Assembly (NCBI GenBank): GCA_000004985.1
Contig: GG738878.1
Source: Naegleria gruberi
Taxonomy: Eukaryota
Direction: 5' to 3' (one strand)
DNA length: 64,000 bases
A program made the position numbers and the translations under genes. The notes under the pieces are model-generated. The model did not search any database, was not told the DNA's origin, and saw only the letters and a program-made list of their open reading frames with translations. Numbering within the stretch: position 1 is the first letter of the stretch; every line of letters starts with the position of its first letter. Positions 2,376 through 62,006 of the stretch are shown here, piece after piece.

Positions 2376-3710
2376 TTATCCTGAAGCACCCTTCAAACCA
2401 CTTTCCAAATGATCAGCTTCACGATTTCTTCTAGTAGAATATTTATCACCAAAGTTTCTCAAATTATTAACCATTCCCTTATAATCATTCTTAGTCAATT
2501 GACCAAAAAATCCAGGAGTGGCCTTCTTAATACTTCCATATTGATGTTGGACACTGTAAGCAACTGATTGGACAGATGATGGCAAATCCTTGAAATTCTT
2601 GACAGCATTTGGATTTTTGGCAGCAGCTGCTTCATAATCTTTGGCCAAGGAGGCAAGTGACTTGTCCATAACTGCCTTATCAATGGCTTTAGCTTCAGCA
2701 GGTGATAGGGATAATGGATTCTTTGATAGGAAATTCTTGGCAGCTTGTTGTTTCAAACCAGTATATGGAGAAAGTTTATCGACTAAACTAGGTGAAAGTC
2801 CAAGAGATTTCAAACCCTTAACATTTTGTTGTCCAATATCGAAACCAGTACCAACAGTAACACCTGATTTACCAACGACAGTACCTGACTTGGATTGTGG
2901 AACGTAACCCTTAGTAGAGAATGCTTCATTCTTAGTAAGTAAACCCTTATCAATCTTGTAACCAGAAACAGTTGCAACAGAAGCAGCAGCAGGTTGTTGA
3001 GCTAGAGCTCTATTTTTGACAGATGTTTGAATGGCAGCAGCTGTCAACTTTCCAGTGACTGCAGGTTGAGCAGCAAAAGCAGCATTAAAACGAGCAGTTA
3101 ATGAATTGACACGTGGACCCTTAACATTCACAGCAGCAGCCTTAGCCATAGCAGAGAATGCCTTTGCCATATTTGGACCAACTAATCCAGTAAATGCCTT
3201 ACTCAATGTAGGACTAACTTTTGAGAATTTACTGGTAATTGAGTTGGCTAATTTGGAAAGAGAAGCACGAGCTTGAGCTGCTTTGAGACCTGCAGTACGA
3301 GTTCTACCTGCCATTCTACCTGCAAGACCCTTATTTGATTTGGTTGATTTGGAAGATGGTCCAGATCGTCCAGTTTTACCTGATGATCTACCATTGGATT
3401 TACCACCACTGGATCTTCCATTGGATCTACCTGATCTACCTGATCTACCTGATTGACCACTGGATCTTCCACCTCTGGAACCTCCTCTGCTACCAGAGCT
3501 ACCTCCACGGCTACCACCACCTCTGGAACCACCAGAACCTCCACGACCACCACCAGAACCACCGCCACCGCCACCGCCACTGGAACCACCCTTGTAAGAA
3601 TCTGCCAATTCGACAATTTCTGCCAAGAAGGAAGAGGATGCGGAAACTGCAATGATGGACACGGAAAGAATGGCCAAACAACACAAGATTGTGAATGAGA
3701 GTTTCTTCAT
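2376..3710 (-). CDS. secreted protein with a Gly/Ser/Arg-rich low-complexity region and a C-terminal phage-type (GH24) lysozyme-like domain
   Basis: A 444-aa ORF with an N-terminal signal peptide (MKKLSFTILCCLAILSVSIIAVSA) and an (RGG/SGG)n tract. The last ~190 aa resemble lambdoid and P21-type phage lysozymes. Examples are E..GYVP...SGVTVGTGFDIG against EG.SYIPYKD.VGVWTVCHGHTG, and NDYKGMVNNLRNFG...STRRNREADH against GDIKGACDQLRRW...TRREIERE. It is a paralog of 12966-14267. Confidence 0.7.
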   Translation of the reverse strand: MKKLSFTILCCLAILSVSIIAVSASSSFLAEIVELADSYKGGSSGGGGGGGSGGGRGGSGGSRGGGSRGGSSGSRGGSRGGRSSGQSGRSGRSGRSNGRSSGGKSNGRSSGKTGRSGPSSKSTKSNKGLAGRMAGRTRTAGLKAAQARASLSKLANSITSKFSKVSPTLSKAFTGLVGPNMAKAFSAMAKAAAVNVKGPRVNSLTARFNAAFAAQPAVTGKLTAAAIQTSVKNRALAQQPAAASVATVSGYKIDKGLLTKNEAFSTKGYVPQSKSGTVVGKSGVTVGTGFDIGQQNVKGLKSLGLSPSLVDKLSPYTGLKQQAAKNFLSKNPLSLSPAEAKAIDKAVMDKSLASLAKDYEAAAAKNPNAVKNFKDLPSSVQSVAYSVQHQYGSIKKATPGFFGQLTKNDYKGMVNNLRNFGDKYSTRRNREADHLESGLKGASG

Positions 3711-5559: not shown

Positions 5560-8309
5560 TTAAACTTTCACCTCATCAAGCTCTTGATTCTTTGCAATTG
5601 AAGATGATTTCACATTCGCATACGAAAAATCTGATTTCTGCGTAACTTTCAAATAAACTTCTTCCAAAGTTGTTTGAGAAATTCCCCAATCTTTAATTCC
5701 TAAAGTTGAATTTTCCAAATCTGAGATTAAATCCGATAATTCTGCAAGTTGCTGCTTGGGAATGTTAAAGATAAAGTTTCCAGCACTTTCGCTTACAATA
5801 TTTACATTCGAAATTCGAGAGTTGACCATTGAAATAACATGTTGCTCGTGTCCAGTGTTGGCCACAACCATGAGATTGTAACCACTTCCATATTGGGCTT
5901 TGATTGAAAGTGAATTTCCAACACATTTCAGTTGACCATGAGCCATGATAGCAATCTTGTCAGATAAATAATCGGCTTCGTCCATGGCATGTGTGGTAAG
6001 AATCATGGCTCTTCCTTCTTTCATTTTGTGAATTAAATTCCATGCTTTCTTTCTTGAATATGGATCCTAATGAGGTGAATAAAGAAAACTAAAGTTGTGA
6101 ATAAACTTACCAAACCAGTGGTTGGCTCATCTAAGAGAACCAACTTTGGATTACCAATACAAGCAATACAAATGGATAATCTTCTCTTCATACCACCTGA
6201 ATAAGTCTTTGTCAAGTGATGGCCAACTTTTGACAAGTCAACCGATTCCAAAAAGTTGCTAACTTGTTCAGTTCTTTGTTTTCTTGGAACTCCTTTCAAA
6301 TCTCCAAACAATTCCAAATGCTCCTCAGCTGTCAAATCGTCCCACAAAATATCATGTTGTGGACACATTCCCAATTGCTTTCGAATATCTTCCATCGAAT
6401 CTCTCACATTCAATCCAGCAATGAAAGCTTCACCAGATGATTGCTGGAACAGCCCAGTCAAAATATTCATTGTGGTTGATTTACCAGCTCCATTATGGCC
6501 CAACAAACTAACACATTGATTATCTTGCACAATTAAATTCAAACCTTTGAGAGCTTTCTTCTCAGAGAAGAATTTTCTAAATTTGGCGGGAAGAATTTTC
6601 AAAGCAATTTTGGCCAAGAATGAAGAAAATGTTCTTCTCAGTGAGATGATTCTGACAATGGCATTCTGATTGAAATCACGTGCCTTGGAAAACTCATTCT
6701 TTATATCTTGAGTTTCCATTTGATGCATATCAGTTTCGTCATTTGCATCAAGTTTCGACTTGGATTTCCATCTATTAATTCCCCAATACGAAGGATATAA
6801 GAAGAAAATTGGTGACTTTCTAACACCATTTCCATCAGAAATTACATTATCACAATACCAATACAAGACGAGAAACAATAACCCATTAAGGAAAAGTGTT
6901 AAAATTCCCAACCACGAACCAGGAACATAATCGTAAGTGTTCTTTCCAATAAATAAATCTTCGATTGTGTAACCTGGACCAGTAACGTACTTTCTTTGTG
7001 TGGAATCGTAAACTGGCAATGCTTTTACAGCAATGTCAATGAAAACCTTGGCAAAGTTGAAAGGTGGATAGAAGGAGAAGATTACAACTATGAGAGGAGT
7101 GATGGAAGAGGAATAGAGCATGTAGACAATGTTACTATTCGAAACTGTCAAGTTCAAAATCTGAATCATGTTAATTTGAATGTGATGTTAATGAATAGTA
7201 CTTACAAAGGAAATTGCCAAAACTGTAAATCCCAAAACTAGAGCAGATTTCGATTCCTTGATAAAAGTTGATAATAGGAAAGCTAAACAAATCAAGGAAA
7301 ATGTGAAACTAAAGAATAATACATAAAGAACAATAAAGTCAGTATTCAAAAAGATTGAAATTTGAAAGATCATGCCACCAATCACATTGACCAATGAGAA
7401 AACGGCACAGATAATCAAGAATGTAATGAACCATGATAGGAAATAGGCAGATTCTTTCATTCCCATCATAATCATGGCAAATCTTAGACGAAACTCCTTC
7501 TCAACAACCAAACTATTCAATGAAATAATCAAGACAATCATGGCTCCAATACTAAAGAAGGTTGGTCCTGAATAATTGTACAATAAAACTTCTCCATTCT
7601 TACTTTGAGGAGGTTGTGGAAAACTCTTAAAGTCAACCTGAATTGAATTTCTAGAATCAGCAAGTTCTTGAGTTCTGCCCAAATCTTTCATTCTCAAATA
7701 AACAATGTTATTGTCAATTAGATTTTGTAAGGAGAGGAGTGGAGTTTTCAAATCCTCTCTAGTTCTATTATAGTACATGGTATATGAAATGGTATCAATG
7801 GTATCTAGTGGACCATTTGGAATGAATGAAATACCAAACATGGTTTGATTTTGATGAGTGTACATCCAATTTTCCATCTCACTTTTGGTTGTAAACATTT
7901 TGTAATCAGTGTCTTGTTTCAAATTGTAATCAGAAATTAACAATTCCATTACCTTCTCTCCAAATGAAATACCATTAGCAGAATAAACTAATTTGTAACA
8001 AGCTCTTCCACCATTCGGTTTGCATTCGTAAAATTTTAAAGCAATTCCATTGTCATACGATTGTTGAGTTGGCACTTGAATTCCCTTATGAATTAGCTCA
8101 ATTGGCTGATGAATTGCACTCTCACCTGAAAAGTTAGCTTGCAAAACCTCCTTCATGACCACCAAAATCACCAAAATAATAATGGGAGACAGCAATTGCA
8201 TTCCAGTAGATTTCCATCTTCTTGTATAGAGCAGGAAATTCTTCTTTAACAAAATGAGCGTTTGTTTCAACACCTCCAACAGATAATTCATAATAATAGT
8301 ATTGAACAA
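5560..8309 (-). CDS. half-size ABCA-family ABC transporter (TMD-NBD), three exons
   Basis: Exons on the minus strand are 8309..7206, 7160..6111 and 6066..5560. Introns are 7205..7161 (45 nt, GTAAGT..CAG) and 6110..6067 (44 nt, GTAAGT..TAG), both phase 0. The N-terminus is ABCA-type (LLKKNFLLYTRRWKSTG). The TMD contains EKEFRLRFAMIMMGMKESAYFLSWF. The NBD has Walker A LLGHNGAGKSTT, signature YSGGMKRRLS, Walker B LVLLDEPTTGLDPYSRK and an H-loop LTTHAMDEAD. Confidence 0.8.
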
Positions 8310-12965: not shown

Positions 12966-14267
12966 ATGAAAACATCTCTCTTGGTTTTATGCACCTTGAT
13001 GGTACTCTGTGTATCCATTATGGCTGTGTCTGGCTCCTTCTTGGAACAAATTGTGGAAATGTCACTTTCTGATTCTAGAAGTTTCAAGTCGGGTGGTGGT
13101 AGCTCTGGAGGAGGTAGCAAATCTGGAAGCAGTAGCAGCAGCTCTGGAAAGTCATCCAGTAAGTCATCCTCATCCTCCAGTAAGAGTACTAGCTCTAGTA
13201 AAACCTCCACTTCAAAGAGTTATAGCAAGTCAACTGTCTCATCAAAGATGGCCTCAGCTTATTCTCAATATGCTAACAGTAGAATTGCTGGTATGAAGAA
13301 TCCAGCCAGCACCATGGCTGGTCTCAAAGCTGCCAATTTGAATGCTCGTTTAAGTGCTCAACCAACTGCTACTGTCAATGGTAAATTGACTGCTGCTGGT
13401 ATCAAGGCCTCTTATCAAAATCGATTGAATACAAGAGTTGCTGCTGCCTATCAACAATATGCTCAATCCAGAATGGCTGCTGCCAAACCAACTGCTAAGC
13501 CAACCAATATTGCTGCAGCTTATCAACAATACGCCCAATCTAGAATTGCTGGTATGAAGAATCCTGCTAGCACTTTGTCTAAACCAACTGCCAAACCTGC
13601 CAATATTGCTGCTGCCTATCAACAATATGCTCAGTCCAGAATTGCTGGTTTGAAGAATCCTGCCAGTACTCTCCCAGGTAGTTTCAAGATTGATAAGGGT
13701 TTGCTTACTGTTAATGAAGGTAAACCTGCCACTACTGGTTACGTTCCACAATCCAAGGCAGGTACTGTCATTGGTAAATCAGGTGTTACTGTTGGTACTG
13801 GATTCGATGTTGGTCAACAAAATGTTAAGGGTTTGAAAGCTCTTGGACTTTCACCAAGTTTAGTCGACAAGCTTTCTCCATACACTGGATTGAAGCAACA
13901 AGCAGCTAAGGACTTTTTGGCTAAGAATCCATTGTCCCTATCGCCTGCTGAAGTTGCATCCATTGATAAGGCAGTTATGGACAAGTTTTCTGCCAATTTG
14001 GCCAAAGATTATGCAGCTGCTGCTGCCAAGAATCCAACTGCTGTCAAGAATTTCAAGGATTTGCCAGCTCCTGTCCAATCAGTTGCTTACAGTGTCTACC
14101 ATCAATATGGAAGCTTCTCCAAGACTCCAAGCTTCATGAACAAGTTGGCCACCAATGATTACAATGGAATGGTTCATGAATTGAGAAACTTTGGTGATTC
14201 TTACTCAACAAGAAGAAATCGTGAAGCTGATCATTTGGAAAGTGGTTTGAAGGCTGCTTCAGGATAA
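12966..14267 (+). CDS. secreted protein with a Ser/Lys-rich region, 3x internal repeats and a C-terminal GH24 lysozyme-like domain (paralog of 2376-3710)
   Basis: A 433-aa ORF with signal peptide MKTSLLVLCTLMVLCVSIMAVSG. It has poly-S/K low complexity and three tandem copies of about AAAYQQYAQSRIAG(M/L)KNPASTL..KPTAKP. From FKIDKGLLT onward the C-terminal ~190 aa are about 75% identical to the other copy. They include the ...YSTRRNREADHLESGLK tail. Confidence 0.7.
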   Translation: MKTSLLVLCTLMVLCVSIMAVSGSFLEQIVEMSLSDSRSFKSGGGSSGGGSKSGSSSSSSGKSSSKSSSSSSKSTSSSKTSTSKSYSKSTVSSKMASAYSQYANSRIAGMKNPASTMAGLKAANLNARLSAQPTATVNGKLTAAGIKASYQNRLNTRVAAAYQQYAQSRMAAAKPTAKPTNIAAAYQQYAQSRIAGMKNPASTLSKPTAKPANIAAAYQQYAQSRIAGLKNPASTLPGSFKIDKGLLTVNEGKPATTGYVPQSKAGTVIGKSGVTVGTGFDVGQQNVKGLKALGLSPSLVDKLSPYTGLKQQAAKDFLAKNPLSLSPAEVASIDKAVMDKFSANLAKDYAAAAAKNPTAVKNFKDLPAPVQSVAYSVYHQYGSFSKTPSFMNKLATNDYNGMVHELRNFGDSYSTRRNREADHLESGLKAASG

Positions 14268-14363
14268 ATAAATTCTAATGTTGTTGCCATCTCTGAACAT
14301 ACTGGAATATTGTCTCAAGTTTTGAATGCCTAGATTATATATTTGAGAATTATCTTGGAATAG

Positions 14364-16191
14364 TTAAAATCTCTTCCTCCTAATCAATTCAACCACCTCA
14401 CTCATAAATTCCCTATCCTTGATGAGTTCTGGAGAAATAGATGTTAGAGAGCTGATTCCATGTATATTGAACAAATTCTCATCATGTTCCAACGCTGTGA
14501 GAACCACTTCCTTGTCCCTCTTAATTCTCTCATCGAACAATTGCAACAATGGGCCACTAATGGCTACAACTTGCAATGCAAATGATTTGTTGTGAAATAG
14601 TCCAGGTTGGAATAGCTTGAGTTTGAAAAGAGAGAAGGGATTTGACTTGCAAGCTTCGATAATCATATCAAAATCATCCTTGAATTTGGTCTTGTGAAGA
14701 AGATAGCCATTCTTTCTGATAGCTTCCAAGACGAAATCTCTGTTACCTGTTAGATCTGGGTGCAGGTAGCAATTTTCAGAATCTTTGGATCCAATCGAAT
14801 CAAGTACGAATTCCTTATTGAGTTGGAATGATTCGTGTGCGTATTCAAGTGCAGAGCTGTTCTGTTTCACTGCTGTTCGAATAATTTCCTCGTCCATCTT
14901 TAAATCATCACTAGCAAATTGTAAATCAGAACCTCTTCTTGCAACAGCTGTTAATACAATCTCTCTATCGCAGCGAAACCCTTCTGGTGTTACTGAGAGT
15001 GACATTCCATTCCTAACAAGGTTCATCACAACATTCCTATTCTTCATTAAAGAATCATTTATACCCTTCAAAGAGGTAATTTTGAAATTATCTAAACAAT
15101 GGTTAATAAACTCCTCGTCCTGTTTTAAATCTTTTGAAATGAAAGGAAATGCTTCCAAACTATTATTCATGGCTTCCAAAGCTATGACCTTATCTGATTT
15201 TAGAGATTGAGAAGCAAACTTTAACGATCCACCATTAGACTTAACTGCCTCTAAAACAATCTCCCTATCACTCCTTAACAGATCACTTGCATGATTCAAG
15301 TCATTTCCACAAGCTCTGACACATTTCAATACCAAATCTCTGTCCTCTCTGGCATCATCATTAAAGTAATCCAAACATCCACTTAATTCTACTCCAATAC
15401 ATGCTTCCATCACTTCCCTATCAGAGAAAACCTCAAATGGTAATTGATTAAGAGCAATCTTTGTTCCTTTCAAGGCTTCCAAAATCACAAATTTATCATT
15501 TTGCAAATCATCATCCAGCATTATGTAATTTCTAAAGTTATTCCTCACAGCTGTCAATATTAATTCTCTATCACTAACCAACAATTCATCACTGATATAC
15601 TCTGTAATAGAATGGCCAGTTTGAGCTGCAACCATCAACAATTCCCTATCATTGGAAATTAATTCGGAATAATCTTGCTCTTCTTCATCAGTGCGATGAG
15701 AGGATGGCAACGATTCCAAATAATTAAGCAATATATTAATACTCAAACCTCGCCTAATAGCTTGCAAGAATAATTCTCTACTACTTGGTGTTGTATTCAT
15801 CAAATAATCTTCATACAAGACACTTAATTTAGAGAGAAACTTTTCCGATTTGAAACACAATACATCATCATTACCTTCATCACTTGTCTGCATTGTAGAA
15901 TAATAGCTTGCACCAAAAATCAAAGGATTCCTTGATAAATTCATCATCCAAATAATCAAAGCAATCTAAATTGATGGTGGTAATGGCTTGAATAATCTTC
16001 TCTCGATCGGAAATGAATTTTACAAGTGATGGATATGAAGAAAGAGTTTTTAAGAGTTTGTTTTCGAGAATTTCAGTTTGATATTTGAATTGCAGTAAAT
16101 CTGAGGTTGATGATTGGAAATGATCGAGTAAAATTACGACTAGATGTTCCTTCATTTTTTTTGTCTTTTCAATATATTGATTTAGATGCAT
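14364..16191 (-). CDS. DUF4116-repeat protein; two overlapping ORFs joined by a frameshift
   Basis: The main ORF is 14364..15959, 531 aa. It has many DUF4116-type repeats (SDREIVLEAVKSNGGSLKFASQSLKSDKVIALEAM; GSDLQFASDDLKMDEEIIRTAVKQNSSALEYA). An upstream ORF at 15880..16191 (MHLNQYIEK...SDREKIIQAITT...) overlaps it in another frame. The frame switch falls at a T5 run (gatttttggtg). I read this as one gene with an indel, or a pseudogene. Confidence 0.6.
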
Positions 16192-25341: not shown

Positions 25342-27776
25342 NNNNNNNNNNNNNNNNNNNNNNNNNNNNNNNNNNNNNNNNNNNNNNNNNNNNNNNNNNN
25401 NNNNNNNNNNNNNNNNNNNNNNNNNNNNNNNNNNNNNNNNNNNNNNNNNNNNNNNNNNNNNNNNNNNNNNNNNNNNNNNNNNNNNNNNNNNNNNNNNNNN
25501 NNNNNNNNNNNNNNNNNNNNNNNNNNNNNNNNNNNNNNNNNNNNNNNNNNNNNNNNNNNNNNNNNNNNNNNNNNNNNNNNNNNNNNNNNNNNNNNNNNNN
25601 NNNNNNNNNNNNNNNNNNNNNNNNNNNNNNNNNNNNNNNNNNNNNNNNNNNNNNNNNNNNNNNNNNNNNNNNNNNNNNNNNNNNNNNNNNNNNNNNNNNN
25701 NNNNNNNNNNNNNNNNNNNNNNNNNNNNNNNNNNNNNNNNNNNNNNNNNNNNNNNNNNNNNNNNNNNNNNNNNNNNNNNNNNNNNNNNNNNNNNNNNNNN
25801 NNNNNNNNNNNNNNNNNNNNNNNNNNNNNNNNNNNNNNNNNNNNNNNNNNNNNNNNNNNNNNNNNNNNNNNNNNNNNNNNNNNNNNNNNNNNNNNNNNNN
25901 NNNNNNNNNNNNNNNNNNNNNNNNNNNNNNNNNNNNNNNNNNNNNNNNNNNNNNNNNNNNNNNNNNNNNNNNNNNNNNNNNNNNNNNNNNNNNNNNNNNN
26001 NNNNNNNNNNNNNNNNNNNNNNNNNNNNNNNNNNNNNNNNNNNNNNNNNNNNNNNNNNNNNNNNNNNNNNNNNNNNNNNNNNNNNNNNNNNNNNNNNNNN
26101 NNNNNNNNNNNNNNNNNNNNNNNNNNNNNNNNNNNNNNNNNNNNNNNNNNNNNNNNNNNNNNNNNNNNNNNNNNNNNNNNNNNNNNNNNNNNNNNNNNNN
26201 NNNNNNNNNNNNNNNNNNNNNNNNNNNNNNNNNNNNNNNNNNNNNNNNNNNNNNNNNNNNNNNNNNNNNNNNNNNNNNNNNNNNNNNNNNNNNNNNNNNN
26301 NNNNNNNNNNNNNNNNNNNNNNNNNNNNNNNNNNNNNNNNNNNNNNNNNNNNNNNNNNNNNNNNNNNNNNNNNNNNNNNNNNNNNNNNNNNNNNNNNNNN
26401 NNNNNNNNNNNNNNNNNNNNNNNNNNNNNNNNNNNNNNNNNNNNNNNNNNNNNNNNNNNNNNNNNNNNNNNNNNNNNNNNNNNNNNNNNNNNNNNNNNNN
26501 NNNNNNNNNNNNNNNNNNNNNNNNNNNNNNNNNNNNNNNNNNNNNNNNNNNNNNNNNNNNNNNNNNNNNNNNNNNNNNNNNNNNNNNNNNNNNNNNNNNN
26601 NNNNNNNNNNNNNNNNNNNNNNNNNNNNNNNNNNNNNNNNNNNNNNNNNNNNNNNNNNNNNNNNNNNNNNNNNNNNNNNNNNNNNNNNNNNNNNNNNNNN
26701 NNNNNNNNNNNNNNNNNNNNNNNNNNNNNNNNNNNNNNNNNNNNNNNNNNNNNNNNNNNNNNNNNNNNNNNNNNNNNNNNNNNNNNNNNNNNNNNNNNNN
26801 NNNNNNNNNNNNNNNNNNNNNNNNNNNNNNNNNNNNNNNNNNNNNNNNNNNNNNNNNNNNNNNNNNNNNNNNNNNNNNNNNNNNNNNNNNNNNNNNNNNN
26901 NNNNNNNNNNNNNNNNNNNNNNNNNNNNNNNNNNNNNNNNNNNNNNNNNNNNNNNNNNNNNNNNNNNNNNNNNNNNNNNNNNNNNNNNNNNNNNNNNNNN
27001 NNNNNNNNNNNNNNNNNNNNNNNNNNNNNNNNNNNNNNNNNNNNNNNNNNNNNNNNNNNNNNNNNNNNNNNNNNNNNNNNNNNNNNNNNNNNNNNNNNNN
27101 NNNNNNNNNNNNNNNNNNNNNNNNNNNNNNNNNNNNNNNNNNNNNNNNNNNNNNNNNNNNNNNNNNNNNNNNNNNNNNNNNNNNNNNNNNNNNNNNNNNN
27201 NNNNNNNNNNNNNNNNNNNNNNNNNNNNNNNNNNNNNNNNNNNNNNNNNNNNNNNNNNNNNNNNNNNNNNNNNNNNNNNNNNNNNNNNNNNNNNNNNNNN
27301 NNNNNNNNNNNNNNNNNNNNNNNNNNNNNNNNNNNNNNNNNNNNNNNNNNNNNNNNNNNNNNNNNNNNNNNNNNNNNNNNNNNNNNNNNNNNNNNNNNNN
27401 NNNNNNNNNNNNNNNNNNNNNNNNNNNNNNNNNNNNNNNNNNNNNNNNNNNNNNNNNNNNNNNNNNNNNNNNNNNNNNNNNNNNNNNNNNNNNNNNNNNN
27501 NNNNNNNNNNNNNNNNNNNNNNNNNNNNNNNNNNNNNNNNNNNNNNNNNNNNNNNNNNNNNNNNNNNNNNNNNNNNNNNNNNNNNNNNNNNNNNNNNNNN
27601 NNNNNNNNNNNNNNNNNNNNNNNNNNNNNNNNNNNNNNNNNNNNNNNNNNNNNNNNNNNNNNNNNNNNNNNNNNNNNNNNNNNNNNNNNNNNNNNNNNNN
27701 NNNNNNNNNNNNNNNNNNNNNNNNNNNNNNNNNNNNNNNNNNNNNNNNNNNNNNNNNNNNNNNNNNNNNNNNNNNN
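25342..27776. other. assembly gap (N run, 2435 nt)
   Basis: Contiguous N. The gap truncates NHL-BTB paralog 2 and breaks the ORF-track X-run ORFs. Confidence 1.
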
Positions 27777-53540: not shown

Positions 53541-54836
53541 NNNNNNNNNNNNNNNNNNNNNNNNNNNNNNNNNNNNNNNNNNNNNNNNNNNNNNNNNNNN
53601 NNNNNNNNNNNNNNNNNNNNNNNNNNNNNNNNNNNNNNNNNNNNNNNNNNNNNNNNNNNNNNNNNNNNNNNNNNNNNNNNNNNNNNNNNNNNNNNNNNNN
53701 NNNNNNNNNNNNNNNNNNNNNNNNNNNNNNNNNNNNNNNNNNNNNNNNNNNNNNNNNNNNNNNNNNNNNNNNNNNNNNNNNNNNNNNNNNNNNNNNNNNN
53801 NNNNNNNNNNNNNNNNNNNNNNNNNNNNNNNNNNNNNNNNNNNNNNNNNNNNNNNNNNNNNNNNNNNNNNNNNNNNNNNNNNNNNNNNNNNNNNNNNNNN
53901 NNNNNNNNNNNNNNNNNNNNNNNNNNNNNNNNNNNNNNNNNNNNNNNNNNNNNNNNNNNNNNNNNNNNNNNNNNNNNNNNNNNNNNNNNNNNNNNNNNNN
54001 NNNNNNNNNNNNNNNNNNNNNNNNNNNNNNNNNNNNNNNNNNNNNNNNNNNNNNNNNNNNNNNNNNNNNNNNNNNNNNNNNNNNNNNNNNNNNNNNNNNN
54101 NNNNNNNNNNNNNNNNNNNNNNNNNNNNNNNNNNNNNNNNNNNNNNNNNNNNNNNNNNNNNNNNNNNNNNNNNNNNNNNNNNNNNNNNNNNNNNNNNNNN
54201 NNNNNNNNNNNNNNNNNNNNNNNNNNNNNNNNNNNNNNNNNNNNNNNNNNNNNNNNNNNNNNNNNNNNNNNNNNNNNNNNNNNNNNNNNNNNNNNNNNNN
54301 NNNNNNNNNNNNNNNNNNNNNNNNNNNNNNNNNNNNNNNNNNNNNNNNNNNNNNNNNNNNNNNNNNNNNNNNNNNNNNNNNNNNNNNNNNNNNNNNNNNN
54401 NNNNNNNNNNNNNNNNNNNNNNNNNNNNNNNNNNNNNNNNNNNNNNNNNNNNNNNNNNNNNNNNNNNNNNNNNNNNNNNNNNNNNNNNNNNNNNNNNNNN
54501 NNNNNNNNNNNNNNNNNNNNNNNNNNNNNNNNNNNNNNNNNNNNNNNNNNNNNNNNNNNNNNNNNNNNNNNNNNNNNNNNNNNNNNNNNNNNNNNNNNNN
54601 NNNNNNNNNNNNNNNNNNNNNNNNNNNNNNNNNNNNNNNNNNNNNNNNNNNNNNNNNNNNNNNNNNNNNNNNNNNNNNNNNNNNNNNNNNNNNNNNNNNN
54701 NNNNNNNNNNNNNNNNNNNNNNNNNNNNNNNNNNNNNNNNNNNNNNNNNNNNNNNNNNNNNNNNNNNNNNNNNNNNNNNNNNNNNNNNNNNNNNNNNNNN
54801 NNNNNNNNNNNNNNNNNNNNNNNNNNNNNNNNNNNN
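53541..54836. other. assembly gap (N run, 1296 nt)
   Basis: Contiguous N. Confidence 1.
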
Positions 54837-55796: not shown

Positions 55797-56435
55797 NNNN
55801 NNNNNNNNNNNNNNNNNNNNNNNNNNNNNNNNNNNNNNNNNNNNNNAGTACATGAAATTGAATTCTATATCATTATAGATCATTTACATCATTTTGGTAA
55901 AGTTTCAATAGGTTTTCCTTTTTCAAGATTTCATCTTTTTGTCATAGTTGACCATATGATGATTGAGGGAAGAAATCTTTAAATATGAAAGTTAAAATAA
56001 ATTTGATATTCGATGTTTACTCATCAAATGGAACATTTTCATATTAGGATTCAATATGTTTTGATGAGAAACTCAAAAGTTATTGTTGACCTCTTTTACC
56101 TCACATCTCCCTTTTCACTCAATACTTTTATATCTACAGACATGAACTTTTGAAATTTCATATGAAAGTGATTATGAATGTTGTTAACGATGATATTGAC
56201 TATATAATCTTATTAAACGATTTTGAAATTATCATTCTTCCTATGGTTTCATTTTAACAATTTTAATCTGACATTATTTACAAAGTTAATATTTTATAAA
56301 TTGAAAAACTAAATATACTGCGTTGTTCTACTCATCATTTCCTATCGAATGATATAAAATTTAATGATATTTGAATAAGTTTATAATTTTGGGCTAGGGT
56401 TTGAAGGTTGGGTTTAGAAGAATTCTATTTTTAGT

Positions 56436-56728: not shown

Positions 56729-59700
56729 NNNNNNNNNNNNNNNNNNNNNNNNNNNNNNNNNNNNNNNNNNNNNNNNNNNNNNNNNNNNNNNNNNNNNNNN
56801 NNNNNNNNNNNNNNNNNNNNNNNNNNNNNNNNNNNNNNNNNNNNNNNNNNNNNNNNNNNNNNNNNNNNNNNNNNNNNNNNNNNNNNNNNNNNNNNNNNNN
56901 NNNNNNNNNNNNNNNNNNNNNNNNNNNNNNNNNNNNNNNNNNNNNNNNNNNNNNNNNNNNNNNNNNNNNNNNNNNNNNNNNNNNNNNNNNNNNNNNNNNN
57001 NNNNNNNNNNNNNNNNNNNNNNNNNNNNNNNNNNNNNNNNNNNNNNNNNNNNNNNNNNNNNNNNNNNNNNNNNNNNNNNNNNNNNNNNNNNNNNNNNNNN
57101 NNNNNNNNNNNNNNNNNNNNNNNNNNNNNNNNNNNNNNNNNNNNNNNNNNNNNNNNNNNNNNNNNNNNNNNNNNNNNNNNNNNNNNNNNNNNNNNNNNNN
57201 NNNNNNNNNNNNNNNNNNNNNNNNNNNNNNNNNNNNNNNNNNNNNNNNNNNNNNNNNNNNNNNNNNNNNNNNNNNNNNNNNNNNNNNNNNNNNNNNNNNN
57301 NNNNNNNNNNNNNNNNNNNNNNNNNNNNNNNNNNNNNNNNNNNNNNNNNNNNNNNNNNNNNNNNNNNNNNNNNNNNNNNNNNNNNNNNNNNNNNNNNNNN
57401 NNNNNNNNNNNNNNNNNNNNNNNNNNNNNNNNNNNNNNNNNNNNNNNNNNNNNNNNNNNNNNNNNNNNNNNNNNNNNNNNNNNNNNNNNNNNNNNNNNNN
57501 NNNNNNNNNNNNNNNNNNNNNNNNNNNNNNNNNNNNNNNNNNNNNNNNNNNNNNNNNNNNNNNNNNNNNNNNNNNNNNNNNNNNNNNNNNNNNNNNNNNN
57601 NNNNNNNNNNNNNNNNNNNNNNNNNNNNNNNNNNNNNNNNNNNNNNNNNNNNNNNNNNNNNNNNNNNNNNNNNNNNNNNNNNNNNNNNNNNNNNNNNNNN
57701 NNNNNNNNNNNNNNNNNNNNNNNNNNNNNNNNNNNNNNNNNNNNNNNNNNNNNNNNNNNNNNNNNNNNNNNNNNNNNNNNNNNNNNNNNNNNNNNNNNNN
57801 NNNNNNNNNNNNNNNNNNNNNNNNNNNNNNNNNNNNNNNNNNNNNNNNNNNNNNNNNNNNNNNNNNNNNNNNNNNNNNNNNNNNNNNNNNNNNNNNNNNN
57901 NNNNNNNNNNNNNNNNNNNNNNNNNNNNNNNNNNNNNNNNNNNNNNNNNNNNNNNNNNNNNNNNNNNNNNNNNNNNNNNNNNNNNNNNNNNNNNNNNNNN
58001 NNNNNNNNNNNNNNNNNNNNNNNNNNNNNNNNNNNNNNNNNNNNNNNNNNNNNNNNNNNNNNNNNNNNNNNNNNNNNNNNNNNNNNNNNNNNNNNNNNNN
58101 NNNNNNNNNNNNNNNNNNNNNNNNNNNNNNNNNNNNNNNNNNNNNNNNNNNNNNNNNNNNNNNNNNNNNNNNNNNNNNNNNNNNNNNNNNNNNNNNNNNN
58201 NNNNNNNNNNNNNNNNNNNNNNNNNNNNNNNNNNNNNNNNNNNNNNNNNNNNNNNNNNNNNNNNNNNNNNNNNNNNNNNNNNNNNNNNNNNNNNNNNNNN
58301 NNNNNNNNNNNNNNNNNNNNNNNNNNNNNNNNNNNNNNNNNNNNNNNNNNNNNNNNNNNNNNNNNNNNNNNNNNNNNNNNNNNNNNNNNNNNNNNNNNNN
58401 NNNNNNNNNNNNNNNNNNNNNNNNNNNNNNNNNNNNNNNNNNNNNNNNNNNNNNNNNNNNNNNNNNNNNNNNNNNNNNNNNNNNNNNNNNNNNNNNNNNN
58501 NNNNNNNNNNNNNNNNNNNNNNNNNNNNNNNNNNNNNNNNNNNNNNNNNNNNNNNNNNNNNNNNNNNNNNNNNNNNNNNNNNNNNNNNNNNNNNNNNNNN
58601 NNNNNNNNNNNNNNNNNNNNNNNNNNNNNNNNNNNNNNNNNNNNNNNNNNNNNNNNNNNNNNNNNNNNNNNNNNNNNNNNNNNNNNNNNNNNNNNNNNNN
58701 NNNNNNNNNNNNNNNNNNNNNNNNNNNNNNNNNNNNNNNNNNNNNNNNNNNNNNNNNNNNNNNNNNNNNNNNNNNNNNNNNNNNNNNNNNNNNNNNNNNN
58801 NNNNNNNNNNNNNNNNNNNNNNNNNNNNNNNNNNNNNNNNNNNNNNNNNNNNNNNNNNNNNNNNNNNNNNNNNNNNNNNNNNNNNNNNNNNNNNNNNNNN
58901 NNNNNNNNNNNNNNNNNNNNNNNNNNNNNNNNNNNNNNNNNNNNNNNNNNNNNNNNNNNNNNNNNNNNNNNNNNNNNNNNNNNNNNNNNNNNNNNNNNNN
59001 NNNNNNNNNNNNNNNNNNNNNNNNNNNNNNNNNNNNNNNNNNNNNNNNNNNNNNNNNNNNNNNNNNNNNNNNNNNNNNNNNNNNNNNNNNNNNNNNNNNN
59101 NNNNNNNNNNNNNNNNNNNNNNNNNNNNNNNNNNNNNNNNNNNNNNNNNNNNNNNNNNNNNNNNNNNNNNNNNNNNNNNNNNNNNNNNNNNNNNNNNNNN
59201 NNNNNNNNNNNNNNNNNNNNNNNNNNNNNNNNNNNNNNNNNNNNNNNNNNNNNNNNNNNNNNNNNNNNNNNNNNNNNNNNNNNNNNNNNNNNNNNNNNNN
59301 NNNNNNNNNNNNNNNNNNNNNNNNNNNNNNNNNNNNNNNNNNNNNNNNNNNNNNNNNNNNNNNNNNNNNNNNNNNNNNNNNNNNNNNNNNNNNNNNNNNN
59401 NNNNNNNNNNNNNNNNNNNNNNNNNNNNNNNNNNNNNNNNNNNNNNNNNNNNNNNNNNNNNNNNNNNNNNNNNNNNNNNNNNNNNNNNNNNNNNNNNNNN
59501 NNNNNNNNNNNNNNNNNNNNNNNNNNNNNNNNNNNNNNNNNNNNNNNNNNNNNNNNNNNNNNNNNNNNNNNNNNNNNNNNNNNNNNNNNNNNNNNNNNNN
59601 NNNNNNNNNNNNNNNNNNNNNNNNNNNNNNNNNNNNNNNNNNNNNNNNNNNNNNNNNNNNNNNNNNNNNNNNNNNNNNNNNNNNNNNNNNNNNNNNNNNN

Positions 59701-62006
59701 NNNNNNNNNNNNNNNNNNNNNNNNNNNNNNNNNNNNNNNNNNNNNNNNNNNNNNNNNNNNNNNNNNNNNNNNNNNNNNNNNNNNNNNNNNNNNNNNNNNN
59801 NNNNNNNNNNNNNNNNNNNNNNNNNNNNNNNNNNNNNNNNNNNNNNNNNNNNNNNNNNNNNNNNNNNNNNNNNNNNNNNNNNNNNNNNNNNNNNNNNNNN
59901 NNNNNNNNNNNNNNNNNNNNNNNNNNNNNNNNNNNNNNNNNNNNNNNNNNNNNNNNNNNNNNNNNNNNNNNNNNNNNNNNNNNNNNNNNNNNNNNNNNNN
60001 NNNNNNNNNNNNNNNNNNNNNNNNNNNNNNNNNNNNNNNNNNNNNNNNNNNNNNNNNNNNNNNNNNNNNNNNNNNNNNNNNNNNNNNNNNNNNNNNNNNN
60101 NNNNNNNNNNNNNNNNNNNNNNNNNNNNNNNNNNNNNNNNNNNNNNNNNNNNNNNNNNNNNNNNNNNNNNNNNNNNNNNNNNNNNNNNNNNNNNNNNNNN
60201 NNNNNNNNNNNNNNNNNNNNNNNNNNNNNNNNNNNNNNNNNNNNNNNNNNNNNNNNNNNNNNNNNNNNNNNNNNNNNNNNNNNNNNNNNNNNNNNNNNNN
60301 NNNNNNNNNNNNNNNNNNNNNNNNNNNNNNNNNNNNNNNNNNNNNNNNNNNNNNNNNNNNNNNNNNNNNNNNNNNNNNNNNNNNNNNNNNNNNNNNNNNN
60401 NNNNNNNNNNNNNNNNNNNNNNNNNNNNNNNNNNNNNNNNNNNNNNNNNNNNNNNNNNNNNNNNNNNNNNNNNNNNNNNNNNNNNNNNNNNNNNNNNNNN
60501 NNNNNNNNNNNNNNNNNNNNNNNNNNNNNNNNNNNNNNNNNNNNNNNNNNNNNNNNNNNNNNNNNNNNNNNNNNNNNNNNNNNNNNNNNNNNNNNNNNNN
60601 NNNNNNNNNNNNNNNNNNNNNNNNNNNNNNNNNNNNNNNNNNNNNNNNNNNNNNNNNNNNNNNNNNNNNNNNNNNNNNNNNNNNNNNNNNNNNNNNNNNN
60701 NNNNNNNNNNNNNNNNNNNNNNNNNNNNNNNNNNNNNNNNNNNNNNNNNNNNNNNNNNNNNNNNNNNNNNNNNNNNNNNNNNNNNNNNNNNNNNNNNNNN
60801 NNNNNNNNNNNNNNNNNNNNNNNNNNNNNNNNNNNNNNNNNNNNNNNNNNNNNNNNNNNNNNNNNNNNNNNNNNNNNNNNNNNNNNNNNNNNNNNNNNNN
60901 NNNNNNNNNNNNNNNNNNNNNNNNNNNNNNNNNNNNNNNNNNNNNNNNNNNNNNNNNNNNNNNNNNNNNNNNNNNNNNNNNNNNNNNNNNNNNNNNNNNN
61001 NNNNNNNNNNNNNNNNNNNNNNNNNNNNNNNNNNNNNNNNNNNNNNNNNNNNNNNNNNNNNNNNNNNNNNNNNNNNNNNNNNNNNNNNNNNNNNNNNNNN
61101 NNNNNNNNNNNNNNNNNNNNNNNNNNNNNNNNNNNNNNNNNNNNNNNNNNNNNNNNNNNNNNNNNNNNNNNNNNNNNNNNNNNNNNNNNNNNNNNNNNNN
61201 NNNNNNNNNNNNNNNNNNNNNNNNNNNNNNNNNNNNNNNNNNNNNNNNNNNNNNNNNNNNNNNNNNNNNNNNNNNNNNNNNNNNNNNNNNNNNNNNNNNN
61301 NNNNNNNNNNNNNNNNNNNNNNNNNNNNNNNNNNNNNNNNNNNNNNNNNNNNNNNNNNNNNNNNNNNNNNNNNNNNNNNNNNNNNNNNNNNNNNNNNNNN
61401 NNNNNNNNNNNNNNNNNNNNNNNNNNNNNNNNNNNNNNNNNNNNNNNNNNNNNNNNNNNNNNNNNNNNNNNNNNNNNNNNNNNNNNNNNNNNNNNNNNNN
61501 NNNNNNNNNNNNNNNNNNNNNNNNNNNNNNNNNNNNNNNNNNNNNNNNNNNNNNNNNNNNNNNNNNNNNNNNNNNNNNNNNNNNNNNNNNNNNNNNNNNN
61601 NNNNNNNNNNNNNNNNNNNNNNNNNNNNNNNNNNNNNNNNNNNNNNNNNNNNNNNNNNNNNNNNNNNNNNNNNNNNNNNNNNNNNNNNNNNNNNNNNNNN
61701 NNNNNNNNNNNNNNNNNNNNNNNNNNNNNNNNNNNNNNNNNNNNNNNNNNNNNNNNNNNNNNNNNNNNNNNNNNNNNNNNNNNNNNNNNNNNNNNNNNNN
61801 NNNNNNNNNNNNNNNNNNNNNNNNNNNNNNNNNNNNNNNNNNNNNNNNNNNNNNNNNNNNNNNNNNNNNNNNNNNNNNNNNNNNNNNNNNNNNNNNNNNN
61901 NNNNNNNNNNNNNNNNNNNNNNNNNNNNNNNNNNNNNNNNNNNNNNNNNNNNNNNNNNNNNNNNNNNNNNNNNNNNNNNNNNNNNNNNNNNNNNNNNNNN
62001 NNNNNN
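56729..62006. other. assembly gap (N run, 5278 nt)
   Basis: Contiguous N. Confidence 1.

Follow-up and report, generated by a model that had tools for sequence, protein, structure and literature searches.

Two genes of Naegleria gruberi encode proteins whose C-terminal domain belongs to the pesticin family, has a predicted fold related to that of lysozymes, and keeps the residues on which the activity of pesticin depends. We consider it likely that both proteins are active pesticin-type muramidases, acquired horizontally and directed at bacterial prey or competitors. The domain call is already present in GenBank and UniProt and is not new; as annotation, our analysis adds nothing, and its worth lies in the biology.

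Two gene copies in a eukaryotic genomic context

The stretch of DNA analyzed (64,000 nt, hereafter the window) originates from Naegleria gruberi NEG-M, where the exact protein was matched in the assembly on a 395-kb scaffold, in line with the initial annotation, which had guessed a bacterivorous amoeba as the host. Paralog 1 (XP_002675482.1 / EFC42738.1 / D2VKR0_NAEGR) and paralog 2 (EFC42638.1 / XP_002675382.1) both carry the database name 'pesticin domain protein'. They share 80.5% identity over the 195 C-terminal residues (tblastn E=1e-99), bearing out the earlier claim of two paralogs, and the motifs quoted for paralog 1, NEAFSTKGYVP, SGVTVGTGFDIG, and NDYKGMVNNLRNFGDKYSTRRNREADH, are all present in the translation of its ORF. 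Both proteins begin with a hydrophobic signal and a disordered linker (Gly/Ser/Arg in paralog 1, Ser/Lys in paralog 2); a basic region rich in Ala then leads into the C-terminal domain, which comprises ~195 aa (Table 1). The GenBank model of paralog 2 comprises 422 aa and begins at Met12 (position 12999), cutting off half of the signal peptide.

Table 1. Coordinates of the two pesticin-type genes and their parts within the window.
Feature	Coordinates	Strand	Length or basis
Paralog 1, whole single-exon ORF	2376..3710	(-)	444 aa, ORF span includes the stop codon; ORF list and exact-sequence match
Paralog 1 residues 1-24, MKKLSFTILCCLAILSVSIIAVSA, putative signal peptide	3639..3710	(-)	Inspection; AlphaFold helix 2-24; resembles the paralog 2 N-terminus
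Paralog 1 residues 25-41, short acidic segment SSSFLAEIVELADSYKG	3588..3638	(-)	Pairwise alignment, charge table, predicted helix 26-40
Paralog 1 residues 42-128, disordered Gly/Ser/Arg (RGG-like) linker	3327..3587	(-)	Composition, pLDDT
Paralog 1 residues 129-247, Ala-rich basic region	2970..3326	(-)	Composition, AlphaFold, homolog search
Paralog 1 residues 248-444, pesticin-type muramidase domain (Pfam envelope 252-411)	2379..2969	(-)	PF16754, pesticin alignment, pLDDT, Foldseek
Paralog 1 key codons E262; T285; D291	2925-2927; 2856-2858; 2838-2840	(-)	
Paralog 2, whole ORF	12966..14267	(+)	433 aa
Paralog 2 residues 43-236, Ser/Lys linker (43-95), then Ala/Gln-rich basic region	13092..13673	(+)	Composition, motif positions
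Paralog 2 residues 237-433, pesticin-type muramidase domain (Pfam envelope 241-400)	13674..14264	(+)	PF16754, residue positions

The two diverged copies lie 9 kb apart on the same scaffold, and the flanking ORFs comprise LRR, PAP2_C, split (multi-exon) ABC-transporter, and DUF4116 genes. A further flanking ORF of 276 aa is unassigned and encodes a protein that is secreted or membrane-bound. The GC3 of the paralogs (0.25-0.33) is host-like, compared with 0.24-0.36 for their neighbors, and introns are absent from both. By neighborhood and base composition alike, the Naegleria pesticin genes are therefore genuine residents of a eukaryotic genome. Contamination with bacterial or phage DNA, or a faulty assembly, could be suspected from the intronless genes and from the nearest relatives, which within the best 150 of 1804 clusters come solely from bacteria, phages, or metagenomes. 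However, such an origin is scarcely credible in view of the two diverged copies amid these neighbors, the matching GC3, the eukaryote-style signals and low-complexity linkers that the bacterial homologs lack, and a top bacterial identity of only ~47% within the best 150 of 1804 clusters.

The domain belongs to the pesticin family and has a lysozyme-related fold

Both paralogs matched the whole PF16754 (Pesticin) model, paralog 1 with E=1.3e-70 and 236.7 bits (model positions 1-156 of 156) and paralog 2 with E=7.2e-69 and 231.1 bits, against a curated gathering cut-off of 25.8 bits. A phmmer comparison of paralog 1 with pesticin (4aqn) gave E=1e-13, covering pesticin residues 178-347 only and running ungapped across the active site. 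The AlphaFold model of the paralog 1 domain has pLDDT values above 90. In Foldseek searches with the predicted domain, the pesticin structures 4epf and 4aqn came first (E ~3e-10, rmsd 2.6-3.0 Å over 192-196 columns), followed more weakly by T4 lysozyme (T4L) and the phage 21 endolysin R21 (3hde), with E values of 4e-3 to 1e-2 and target-normalised TM-scores of 0.52-0.63. Because of the PF16754 E values and the Foldseek E value for pesticin, the lysozyme resemblance of the C-terminal domain is far beyond chance.

The initial annotation had likened the domain to lambdoid/P21-type GH24 lysozymes. The predicted structure retains this likeness as a T4-like fold; at the sequence level, the GH24 assignment gave way to PF16754. 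Neither paralog matched PF00959 in hmmscan, even at E<=10, and the hhalign comparison of the family profile with T4 lysozyme aligned the C-terminal lobe alone (E=0.085, probability 0.7%). We thus dropped PF00959/GH24 membership at the sequence level, and the lysozyme claim survives at the level of the fold only. Of the two outcomes named in the initial annotation as refuting it, the lack of a PF00959 match was observed, whereas a fold unrelated to lysozyme was not. NCBIfam contained no family for either paralog.

The active site follows the pesticin arrangement

The substitutions E178A, T201A, and D207A each inactivate pesticin, and P187A and Q301A weaken it about tenfold (PMC3390615). The Glu and Thr are structurally equivalent to those of T4L, and the essential Asp, D207, is located six residues past the catalytic T201 and has no counterpart in T4L; P187, Q301, and R339/R340 are strictly conserved among pesticin homologs (PMC3390615). 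In the pesticin-like T6SS effector VgrG3cp, the equivalent substitution of the Asp, D867A, abolished peptidoglycan degradation (PMC9927483).

Residues E262, T285, and D291 of paralog 1 align with pesticin E178, T201, and D207 in the ungapped phmmer alignment, and the catalytic residues of paralog 2 are E251, T275, and D281. The other conserved pesticin residues are also kept, namely P271, Q390, and R427/R428 in paralog 1 and P261, Q380, and R416/R417 in paralog 2, with Q390 aligning to T4L Q105 in hhalign. The canonical Asp was previously noted as seemingly missing, and the Glu-to-Thr segment YVPQSKSGTVVGKSGVT indeed contains no Asp, unlike the D20 position of T4L or the D44 position of R21. 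However, this is a trait of the whole pesticin family (PMC3390615) rather than a loss; D291 and D281 are the equivalents of D207.

The initial annotation also raised the alternative of catalytically dead binding proteins. On this reading, the two would bind peptidoglycan, for instance as pattern-recognition lectins, and would have retained a lysozyme fold without hydrolysis. The lack of an Asp at the T4/P21 site could be read in this way, and so could the dN/dS of 0.36 between the paralog domains, which is not very low; in favor of an active enzyme, it counts as moderate constraint only. Yet both paralogs possess all five residues that were probed by mutagenesis in pesticin, an alignment of 19 homologs shows no variation at T285 and D291, and the Naegleria active site is indistinguishable from those of the bacterial enzymes, which makes a binding protein devoid of activity very improbable. 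The catalytic residues are intact in both paralogs, which leaves little of the dead-enzyme idea. The low dS of the paralog domains may reflect gene conversion instead of long-term selection.

The nearest relatives found are bacterial, phage, or metagenomic

The homolog search returned 1804 clusters, and the nearest relatives outside Naegleria among the best 150 of them reached ~47% identity and were metagenomic or bacterial. IMG/VR viral contigs carry 386 relatives, and phrog_24780 was matched with E=1.6e-42. A profile search of contigs found relatives at 33-44% identity in genomes of Pseudomonas, Marinomonas, Glaciecola, Shewanella, Planctomycetes, and Bdellovibrionota. The bacterial homologs are mostly 180-300 aa long and start at the domain, lacking a eukaryote-style signal and low-complexity linker. 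The only other eukaryote among the best 150 of 1804 clusters was the acorn worm Saccoglossus, which is not the nearest neighbor of the Naegleria pair in a tree of neighbor-joining distances for the best 150 of 1804 cluster representatives, a tree without support values in which most representatives are unnamed. Ten further nearest-neighbor clusters consist of metagenome proteins, some with IMG labels such as 'lysozyme-like predicted toxin'. Within the best 150 of 1804 clusters, the nearest relatives thus appear to be prokaryotic or viral, and the eukaryotic presence seems patchy. We infer the direction and the source of the transfer from these comparisons and leave the donor lineage at a bacterium or a phage.

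An acid-free polycationic extension precedes the domain

By eye, both N-termini have a Lys-containing start and a hydrophobic stretch of 17-19 residues followed by a small-residue site (AVSA/AVSG), which supports the earlier view that both are of the secretion type. The 19-residue hydrophobic core of the paralog 1 N-terminus could alternatively be a signal anchor rather than a signal peptide. Segment 25-41 of paralog 1, conserved between the paralogs as SFL-x-x-IVE, is the sole acidic stretch upstream of the domain; it may function in sorting or as a pro-segment.

The long flexible RGG or poly-Ser linkers pointed out in the initial annotation were confirmed by composition and by pLDDT values below 50 across paralog 1 residues 41-132. 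The paralog 1 linker consists of 43% Gly, 30% Ser, and 14% Arg, with a net charge of +17 and no Asp or Glu; the paralog 2 linker contains 57% Ser, 15% Lys, and 15% Gly. The Ala-rich region of paralog 1 likewise has a net charge of +17 and no Asp or Glu, and its helices (130-238) were modelled by AlphaFold at low confidence (pLDDT 53-66). In the basic region of paralog 2, the motif A-x-AY-x-QYA-x-SR-x-A-x-x-K occurs four times, at positions 96, 159, 183, and 215. The acid-free extension spans 206 residues with a net charge of +34 in paralog 1 and 194 residues with a net charge of +25 in paralog 2. A profile of the N-terminal module from both paralogs found no homologs (0 at E<=0.01) among 4247 word-sharing candidates, and the region had no Pfam or NCBIfam match. 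This acid-free polycationic extension without detectable homologs is a previously unremarked feature.

We also considered an amphipathic design of the Ala-rich region resembling antimicrobial peptides, which was not supported by the hydrophobic-moment scan. A single segment, paralog 1 residues 156-173, was clearly amphipathic (µH 0.49, reached by 1/500 shuffles); for the remaining segments, the observed value was reached by fractions of ~0.02 to 0.55 of the shuffles.

Discussion

We propose that the products of the two Naegleria gruberi genes are peptidoglycan hydrolases of the secretory pathway. Their catalytic module would be an N-acetylmuramidase of the pesticin type that adopts a T4-lysozyme-like fold, with the Glu serving as the general acid and the Thr and Asp being essential. 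The domain would have reached the amoeba lineage by horizontal transfer, with a bacterium or phage as the donor; a eukaryotic signal sequence and the long acid-free polycationic extension would have been added afterwards, followed by a local duplication. The most likely role would be to cut the murein of eaten or competing bacteria, inside the phagolysosome or once secreted.

Certain lysozyme-fold enzymes cleave chitin-like substrates, and the Naegleria proteins could conceivably be active glycosidases whose substrate is endogenous or at least not murein, such as the amoeba's own cyst wall, which they would remodel, or chitin-like polymers. The N-terminal extension without a bacterial counterpart would be compatible with such a function. 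However, pesticin and VgrG3cp, the characterized members of the family, all act on peptidoglycan, and the cleft residues Q301 and R339/R340 of pesticin are kept as Q390 and R427/R428, so we regard a non-murein substrate as very improbable and favor bacterial murein.

The activity domain of Yersinia pestis pesticin (PDB 4AQN/4EPF) shares PF16754 membership, ~25% identity (2.6 Å over 192 columns), and an identical arrangement of the catalytic Glu, Thr, and Asp with the Naegleria domain, in which the Pro, Gln, and Arg-Arg residues are kept as well. Pesticin, however, is a bacteriocin with an N-terminal TonB-box translocation domain, an FyuA receptor-binding domain, and an immunity protein. The TonB-box and FyuA domains are absent from the Naegleria proteins, which bear a eukaryotic signal and the acid-free low-complexity extension in their place; an immunity protein would not be needed in Naegleria because it is a eukaryote without peptidoglycan. 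T4 lysozyme and R21 (GH24, PF00959) resemble the Naegleria domain in the overall two-lobed fold but have no significant sequence similarity to it, and their Asp precedes the Thr, whereas in Naegleria and pesticin it follows.

To our knowledge, two families of antibacterial cell-wall hydrolases have passed to eukaryotes, GH25 lysozymes and Tae/Dae amidases. The Naegleria and Saccoglossus genes would add a third, pesticin-type muramidases, to such transfers from bacteria or phages. Ticks are said to carry 'domesticated amidase effectors', reportedly the subject of work by Chou et al. in 2015. GH25 muramidases are antibacterial enzymes against the cell wall that eukaryotes obtained by horizontal transfer (Metcalf et al., 2014; PMC4241558), and this article mentions neither pesticin nor Naegleria. 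The GH25 and tick examples resemble Naegleria in the pattern of a bacterial or phage murein hydrolase that occurs patchily in a eukaryote, with its active site kept and adapted for secretion. Both belong to other enzyme families, and antibacterial activity has been demonstrated for GH25, whereas for the Naegleria proteins it is predicted.

The proteins of Saccoglossus kowalevskii (LOC100370085, LOC100370384) likewise contain the pesticin domain with its catalytic motifs, and XP_002740238.1 has a signal peptide. They differ from the Naegleria proteins, to which they are 33-36% identical, in having three or four tandem domains and Cys-rich modules. Because of this low identity and because the two are not nearest neighbors in distance, independent acquisition in Saccoglossus and Naegleria appears likely. 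The searched literature contained no discussion of the Naegleria or Saccoglossus pesticin genes, no mention of their six accessions, and no enzymatic, localization, or expression data for the Naegleria pair; pesticin with Naegleria yielded one irrelevant reference-list match and pesticin with Saccoglossus none, and in the Naegleria pangenome paper, lysozymes come up in general terms only.

'Artilysins' are engineered fusions of polycations with endolysins that let lysozyme kill Gram-negative bacteria from outside. A more far-reaching idea, which we hold to be doubtful, is that the polycationic extension is a naturally evolved module that breaches the outer membrane or binds LPS or teichoic acid, and that two distant eukaryotes, Naegleria and the hemichordate Saccoglossus, each put the pesticin domain to use in immunity or feeding on their own. 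If so, the Naegleria proteins would be a natural counterpart of Artilysins. The acid-free cationic extension is a candidate natural route for lysozyme across the Gram-negative outer membrane and would be of practical interest for endolysin engineering.

The closest sequences among the best 150 of 1804 clusters are bacterial and phage stand-alone muramidases resembling the pesticin C-terminus (phrog_24780, WP_300000787.1), with which the Naegleria proteins share 38-47% identity, the motifs GYVP...SGVT[VI]GTGFD[IL]GQ and LRNFGD.Y.TRRNREAD, and presumably the same chemistry. The pesticin-domain T6SS effectors VgrG3cp and TssI2 are counted with these muramidases here. Unlike the Naegleria proteins, the bacterial and phage muramidases work within bacterial systems, none has the Naegleria N-terminal architecture, and some bacterial pesticin domains are fused to VgrG. 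On one viral contig, the pesticin-type gene adjoins membrane-protein genes and lies between tail genes, and on one bacterial chromosome, the ORF after the pesticin-type gene overlaps it and is a possible immunity gene.

Pesticin-type catalytic domain

The C-terminal domain of both paralogs was shown to be a pesticin-type module of lysozyme fold in an amoeba genome, with its active site intact. The initial annotation had reported a domain with the layout of GH24 phage lysozymes. Its finding is real, all the motifs that it cited were found in the ORF translation, and its interpretation is right at the level of the fold; however, the family is Pesticin (PF16754) and not GH24 (PF00959). In hmmscan, PF16754 matched both paralogs over model positions 1-156 of 156 (E=1.3e-70 for paralog 1 and 7.2e-69 for paralog 2), whereas the expected PF00959 was absent from both even at E<=10. 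The sole phmmer match among the PDB sequences was Yersinia pestis pesticin (4aqn, 4epf and mutants; E ~1e-13), covering its residues 178-347, the activity domain.

An AlphaFold2 model of paralog 1 built from a 19-sequence alignment reached pLDDT >90 throughout residues 245-444, and its superposition confirmed a lysozyme-type fold. Eleven pesticin chains took the top ranks in Foldseek against the PDB (E 3e-10 to 6e-9; rmsd 2.6-3.2 Å over 192-196 columns, 24-26% identity). They were followed by an Acinetobacter phage endolysin (8app), T4 lysozyme and the phage 21 endolysin R21, the last two at E 4e-3 to 1e-2 and TM 0.52-0.63 on target. The family profile did not match the T4 lysozyme sequence significantly (E=0.085); in the aligned part, Q390 of paralog 1 stood opposite T4 lysozyme Q105. 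The catalytic domains are basic (pI 9.5-9.8).

Active-site residues

In pesticin, E178A, T201A and D207A each abolish activity, whereas P187A and Q301A reduce it about tenfold (Patzer et al. 2012, PMC3390615), and the corresponding mutation D867A in the pesticin-like type VI effector VgrG3cp abolishes peptidoglycan degradation (PMC9927483). These five pesticin residues are strictly conserved among its homologs, and E178 and T201 are structurally equivalent to E11 and T26 of T4 lysozyme (PMC3390615). Since the phmmer alignment to pesticin contains no gap from E178 to beyond D207, E178, P187, T201 and D207 map to E262, P271, T285 and D291 of paralog 1, in which Q390 corresponds to Q301 and R427/R428 to R339/R340. 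The equivalents in paralog 2 are E251, P261, T275, D281, Q380 and R416/R417. P271, T285 and D291 were invariant and Q390 nearly invariant in the 19-sequence alignment, and the catalytic Glu was invariant among 138 aligned sequences. The suggested QSKSG insertion in place of the canonical Asp turned out to be an ordinary loop of the pesticin family, the essential Asp lying within GTGFDIG. Nor was there any sign of the loss of function considered earlier, as all pesticin residues tested by mutagenesis are kept in both paralogs; judged by sequence, the catalytic machinery is complete in both.

Gene models and divergence of the paralogs

A tblastn search of the window with the last 214 residues of paralog 1 found, besides paralog 1 itself, only the second domain copy listed in the table. 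The two genes are divergently oriented with 9 kb between them. By exact-sequence look-up, paralog 1 is XP_002675482.1 / EFC42738.1 / D2VKR0_NAEGR, "pesticin domain protein [Naegleria gruberi strain NEG-M]". Paralog 2 is XP_002675382.1 / EFC42638.1, a "pesticin domain-containing protein" of 422 aa; the domain call for both exact proteins is thus already public in the GenBank and UniProt names. The deposited model of paralog 2 starts at Met12 of the ORF, which halves the hydrophobic N-terminus (12966-13001). Translation from the in-frame upstream ATG at 12966 yields MKTSLLVLCTLMVLCVSIMAVSG, which parallels MKKLSFTILCCLAILSVSIIAVSA of paralog 1 and restores the full hydrophobic signal sequence; the deposited model therefore probably lacks part of the N-terminus.

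Features of the window
Feature	Position	Strand	Details
Paralog 1	2376..3710	-	single uninterrupted ORF, 444 aa, stop codon included
XP_002675381.1	11895-12725	+	276-aa predicted protein directly upstream of paralog 2
Paralog 2	12966..14267	+	ORF of 433 aa
Four imperfect ~16-residue motif copies	13251-13673	+	paralog 2 residues 96-236; ASAYSQYANSRIAGMK, AAAYQQYAQSRMAAAK, AAAYQQYAQSRIAGMK, AAAYQQYAQSRIAGLK
Second domain copy	13683..14264	+	80.5% identity over 195 residues, E=1e-99
DUF4116-repeat ORF	14364-15959	-	531 aa, eight repeats, E=2e-84
Assembly gaps (N runs)	25342-27776, 53541-54836, 55797-55846, 56729-62006		9059 bases in total

The DNA of the paralogs could be aligned only over the domain, with 84.6% identity over 603 nt reaching 12 nt beyond the stop codon (2364-2966 and 13681-14279). 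Similarity is confined to the domain, where dS is 0.37, whereas well-aligned signal-peptide codons are saturated; this pattern suggests that the paralogs underwent gene conversion or exchanged the domain more recently. dN/dS between the two domains was 0.36 (Nei-Gojobori).

N-terminal extensions and proposed function

The hydrophobic N-terminus is followed by a short acidic segment kept between the paralogs (SFLAEIVEL / SFLEQIVEM), a disordered linker and an Ala-rich basic region. As described before, long flexible linkers precede the domain in both proteins. By composition, Gly/Ser/Arg prevail in that of paralog 1, for which AlphaFold also indicates disorder, and Ser/Lys in its counterpart. 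The Ala-rich region was modelled as long low-confidence helices (pLDDT 53-66). The motif copies of paralog 2 share the consensus A-x-AY-x-QYA-x-SR-x-A-x-x-K, and their region gave neither a Pfam match nor a homolog. No homolog of the N-terminal region was found in a search that likewise missed the window's own two proteins, so that close Naegleria orthologs may be missed.

Residues 42-247 of paralog 1 (net +34) and 43-236 of paralog 2 (net +25) contain no Asp or Glu; at the domain's acidic frequency (7.6%), 206 acid-free residues have a probability of ~8e-8, although this calculation assumes random sampling, which does not hold for sequence of low complexity. One segment excepted, the amphipathicity of the extension is unremarkable. 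From family knowledge, the domain would hydrolyse the MurNAc-GlcNAc bond of murein; the N-terminus suggests entry into the secretory or endolysosomal pathway and, with the organism's life style, action on bacteria ingested or nearby. Engineered polycation-endolysin fusions reach murein through the outer membrane. By analogy, we speculate, with considerable doubt, that the polycationic extension might bind anionic envelopes and help the enzyme to reach murein in this way; a simple flexible spacer, possibly glycosylated, is equally possible.

Relatives and origin

When 1.84 billion cluster representatives were scanned in full with HMMER, 1804 clusters matched (E<=1e-3). Two Saccoglossus kowalevskii proteins, XP_077870017.1 and XP_002740238.1, scored best after the Naegleria pair at 33-36% identity because they contain four and three tandem domains, respectively; other relatives among the best 150 clusters were at most 48% identical. 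Both are encoded on one 394-kb contig and retain the catalytic motifs; one of them carries Cys-rich modules at its C-terminus as well as a signal peptide. Named relatives in the clusters examined included a cyanobacterial "pesticin C-terminus-like muramidase" and an IMG "lysozyme-like predicted toxin", the rest being metagenome proteins. Bacterial versions mostly comprise 180-300 aa and begin at the domain; in some, the domain is joined to modules of a peptidoglycan-binding, lectin-like or giant toxin type. Among GTDB species genomes, LRNFGD...RRNREAD occurred chiefly in Gammaproteobacteria (Pseudomonas, Marinomonas, Glaciecola, Shewanella, Alteromonadaceae), and also in Alphaproteobacteria, one planctomycete and one Bdellovibrionota MAG, all at 33-44% identity.

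At least 386 relatives were present in IMG/VR, and phrog_24780 matched at E=1.6e-42. On one viral contig, the pesticin-type gene lies between tail sheath/tube-like genes and two membrane-protein genes followed by a tape-measure-like gene, a placement compatible, from ORF inspection, with a lysis function. At 7001-8247 of a 1.49-Mb bacterial contig, a stand-alone pesticin-domain gene is followed, with an overlap of 4 nt, by a 213-aa ORF without a Pfam match, a candidate immunity gene in a layout like that of a toxin-immunity pair.

Neighbour-joining of the best 150 of the 1804 cluster representatives (BLOSUM62 distances, 184 trimmed columns, no support values) placed the two Naegleria domains in one tight group and the seven from Saccoglossus in another. 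As the next neighbours of each are bacterial or metagenomic, our reading of this tree without support values is that bacteria or phages donated the domain twice, independently. The literature searched mentions neither the Naegleria proteins nor the Saccoglossus genes, nor pesticin together with Saccoglossus. The cationic extension and the role of this lysozyme family in eukaryotes are thus leads that are unexplored, if modest.

Genomic setting

Paralog 1 sits on a 395-kb N. gruberi scaffold, and two ORFs in its neighbourhood are N. gruberi predicted proteins too. Contamination as the source of the genes is very unlikely, because the flanking genes are typically eukaryotic (genes for an LRR and a PAP2_C protein, a multi-exon gene for an ABC transporter, and the gene for the DUF4116-repeat protein) and the GC content of the two paralogs at third codon positions (0.25 and 0.33) is within the neighbours' range (0.24-0.36). 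The assembly gaps give rise to long ORFs that are artefacts, and they account for the stretches of zero or low GC in the composition profile. XP_002675381.1 matched no Pfam family; it has a hydrophobic N-terminal signal and a hydrophobic C-terminal segment, and a near-identical copy occurs in an ENA metagenome contig.
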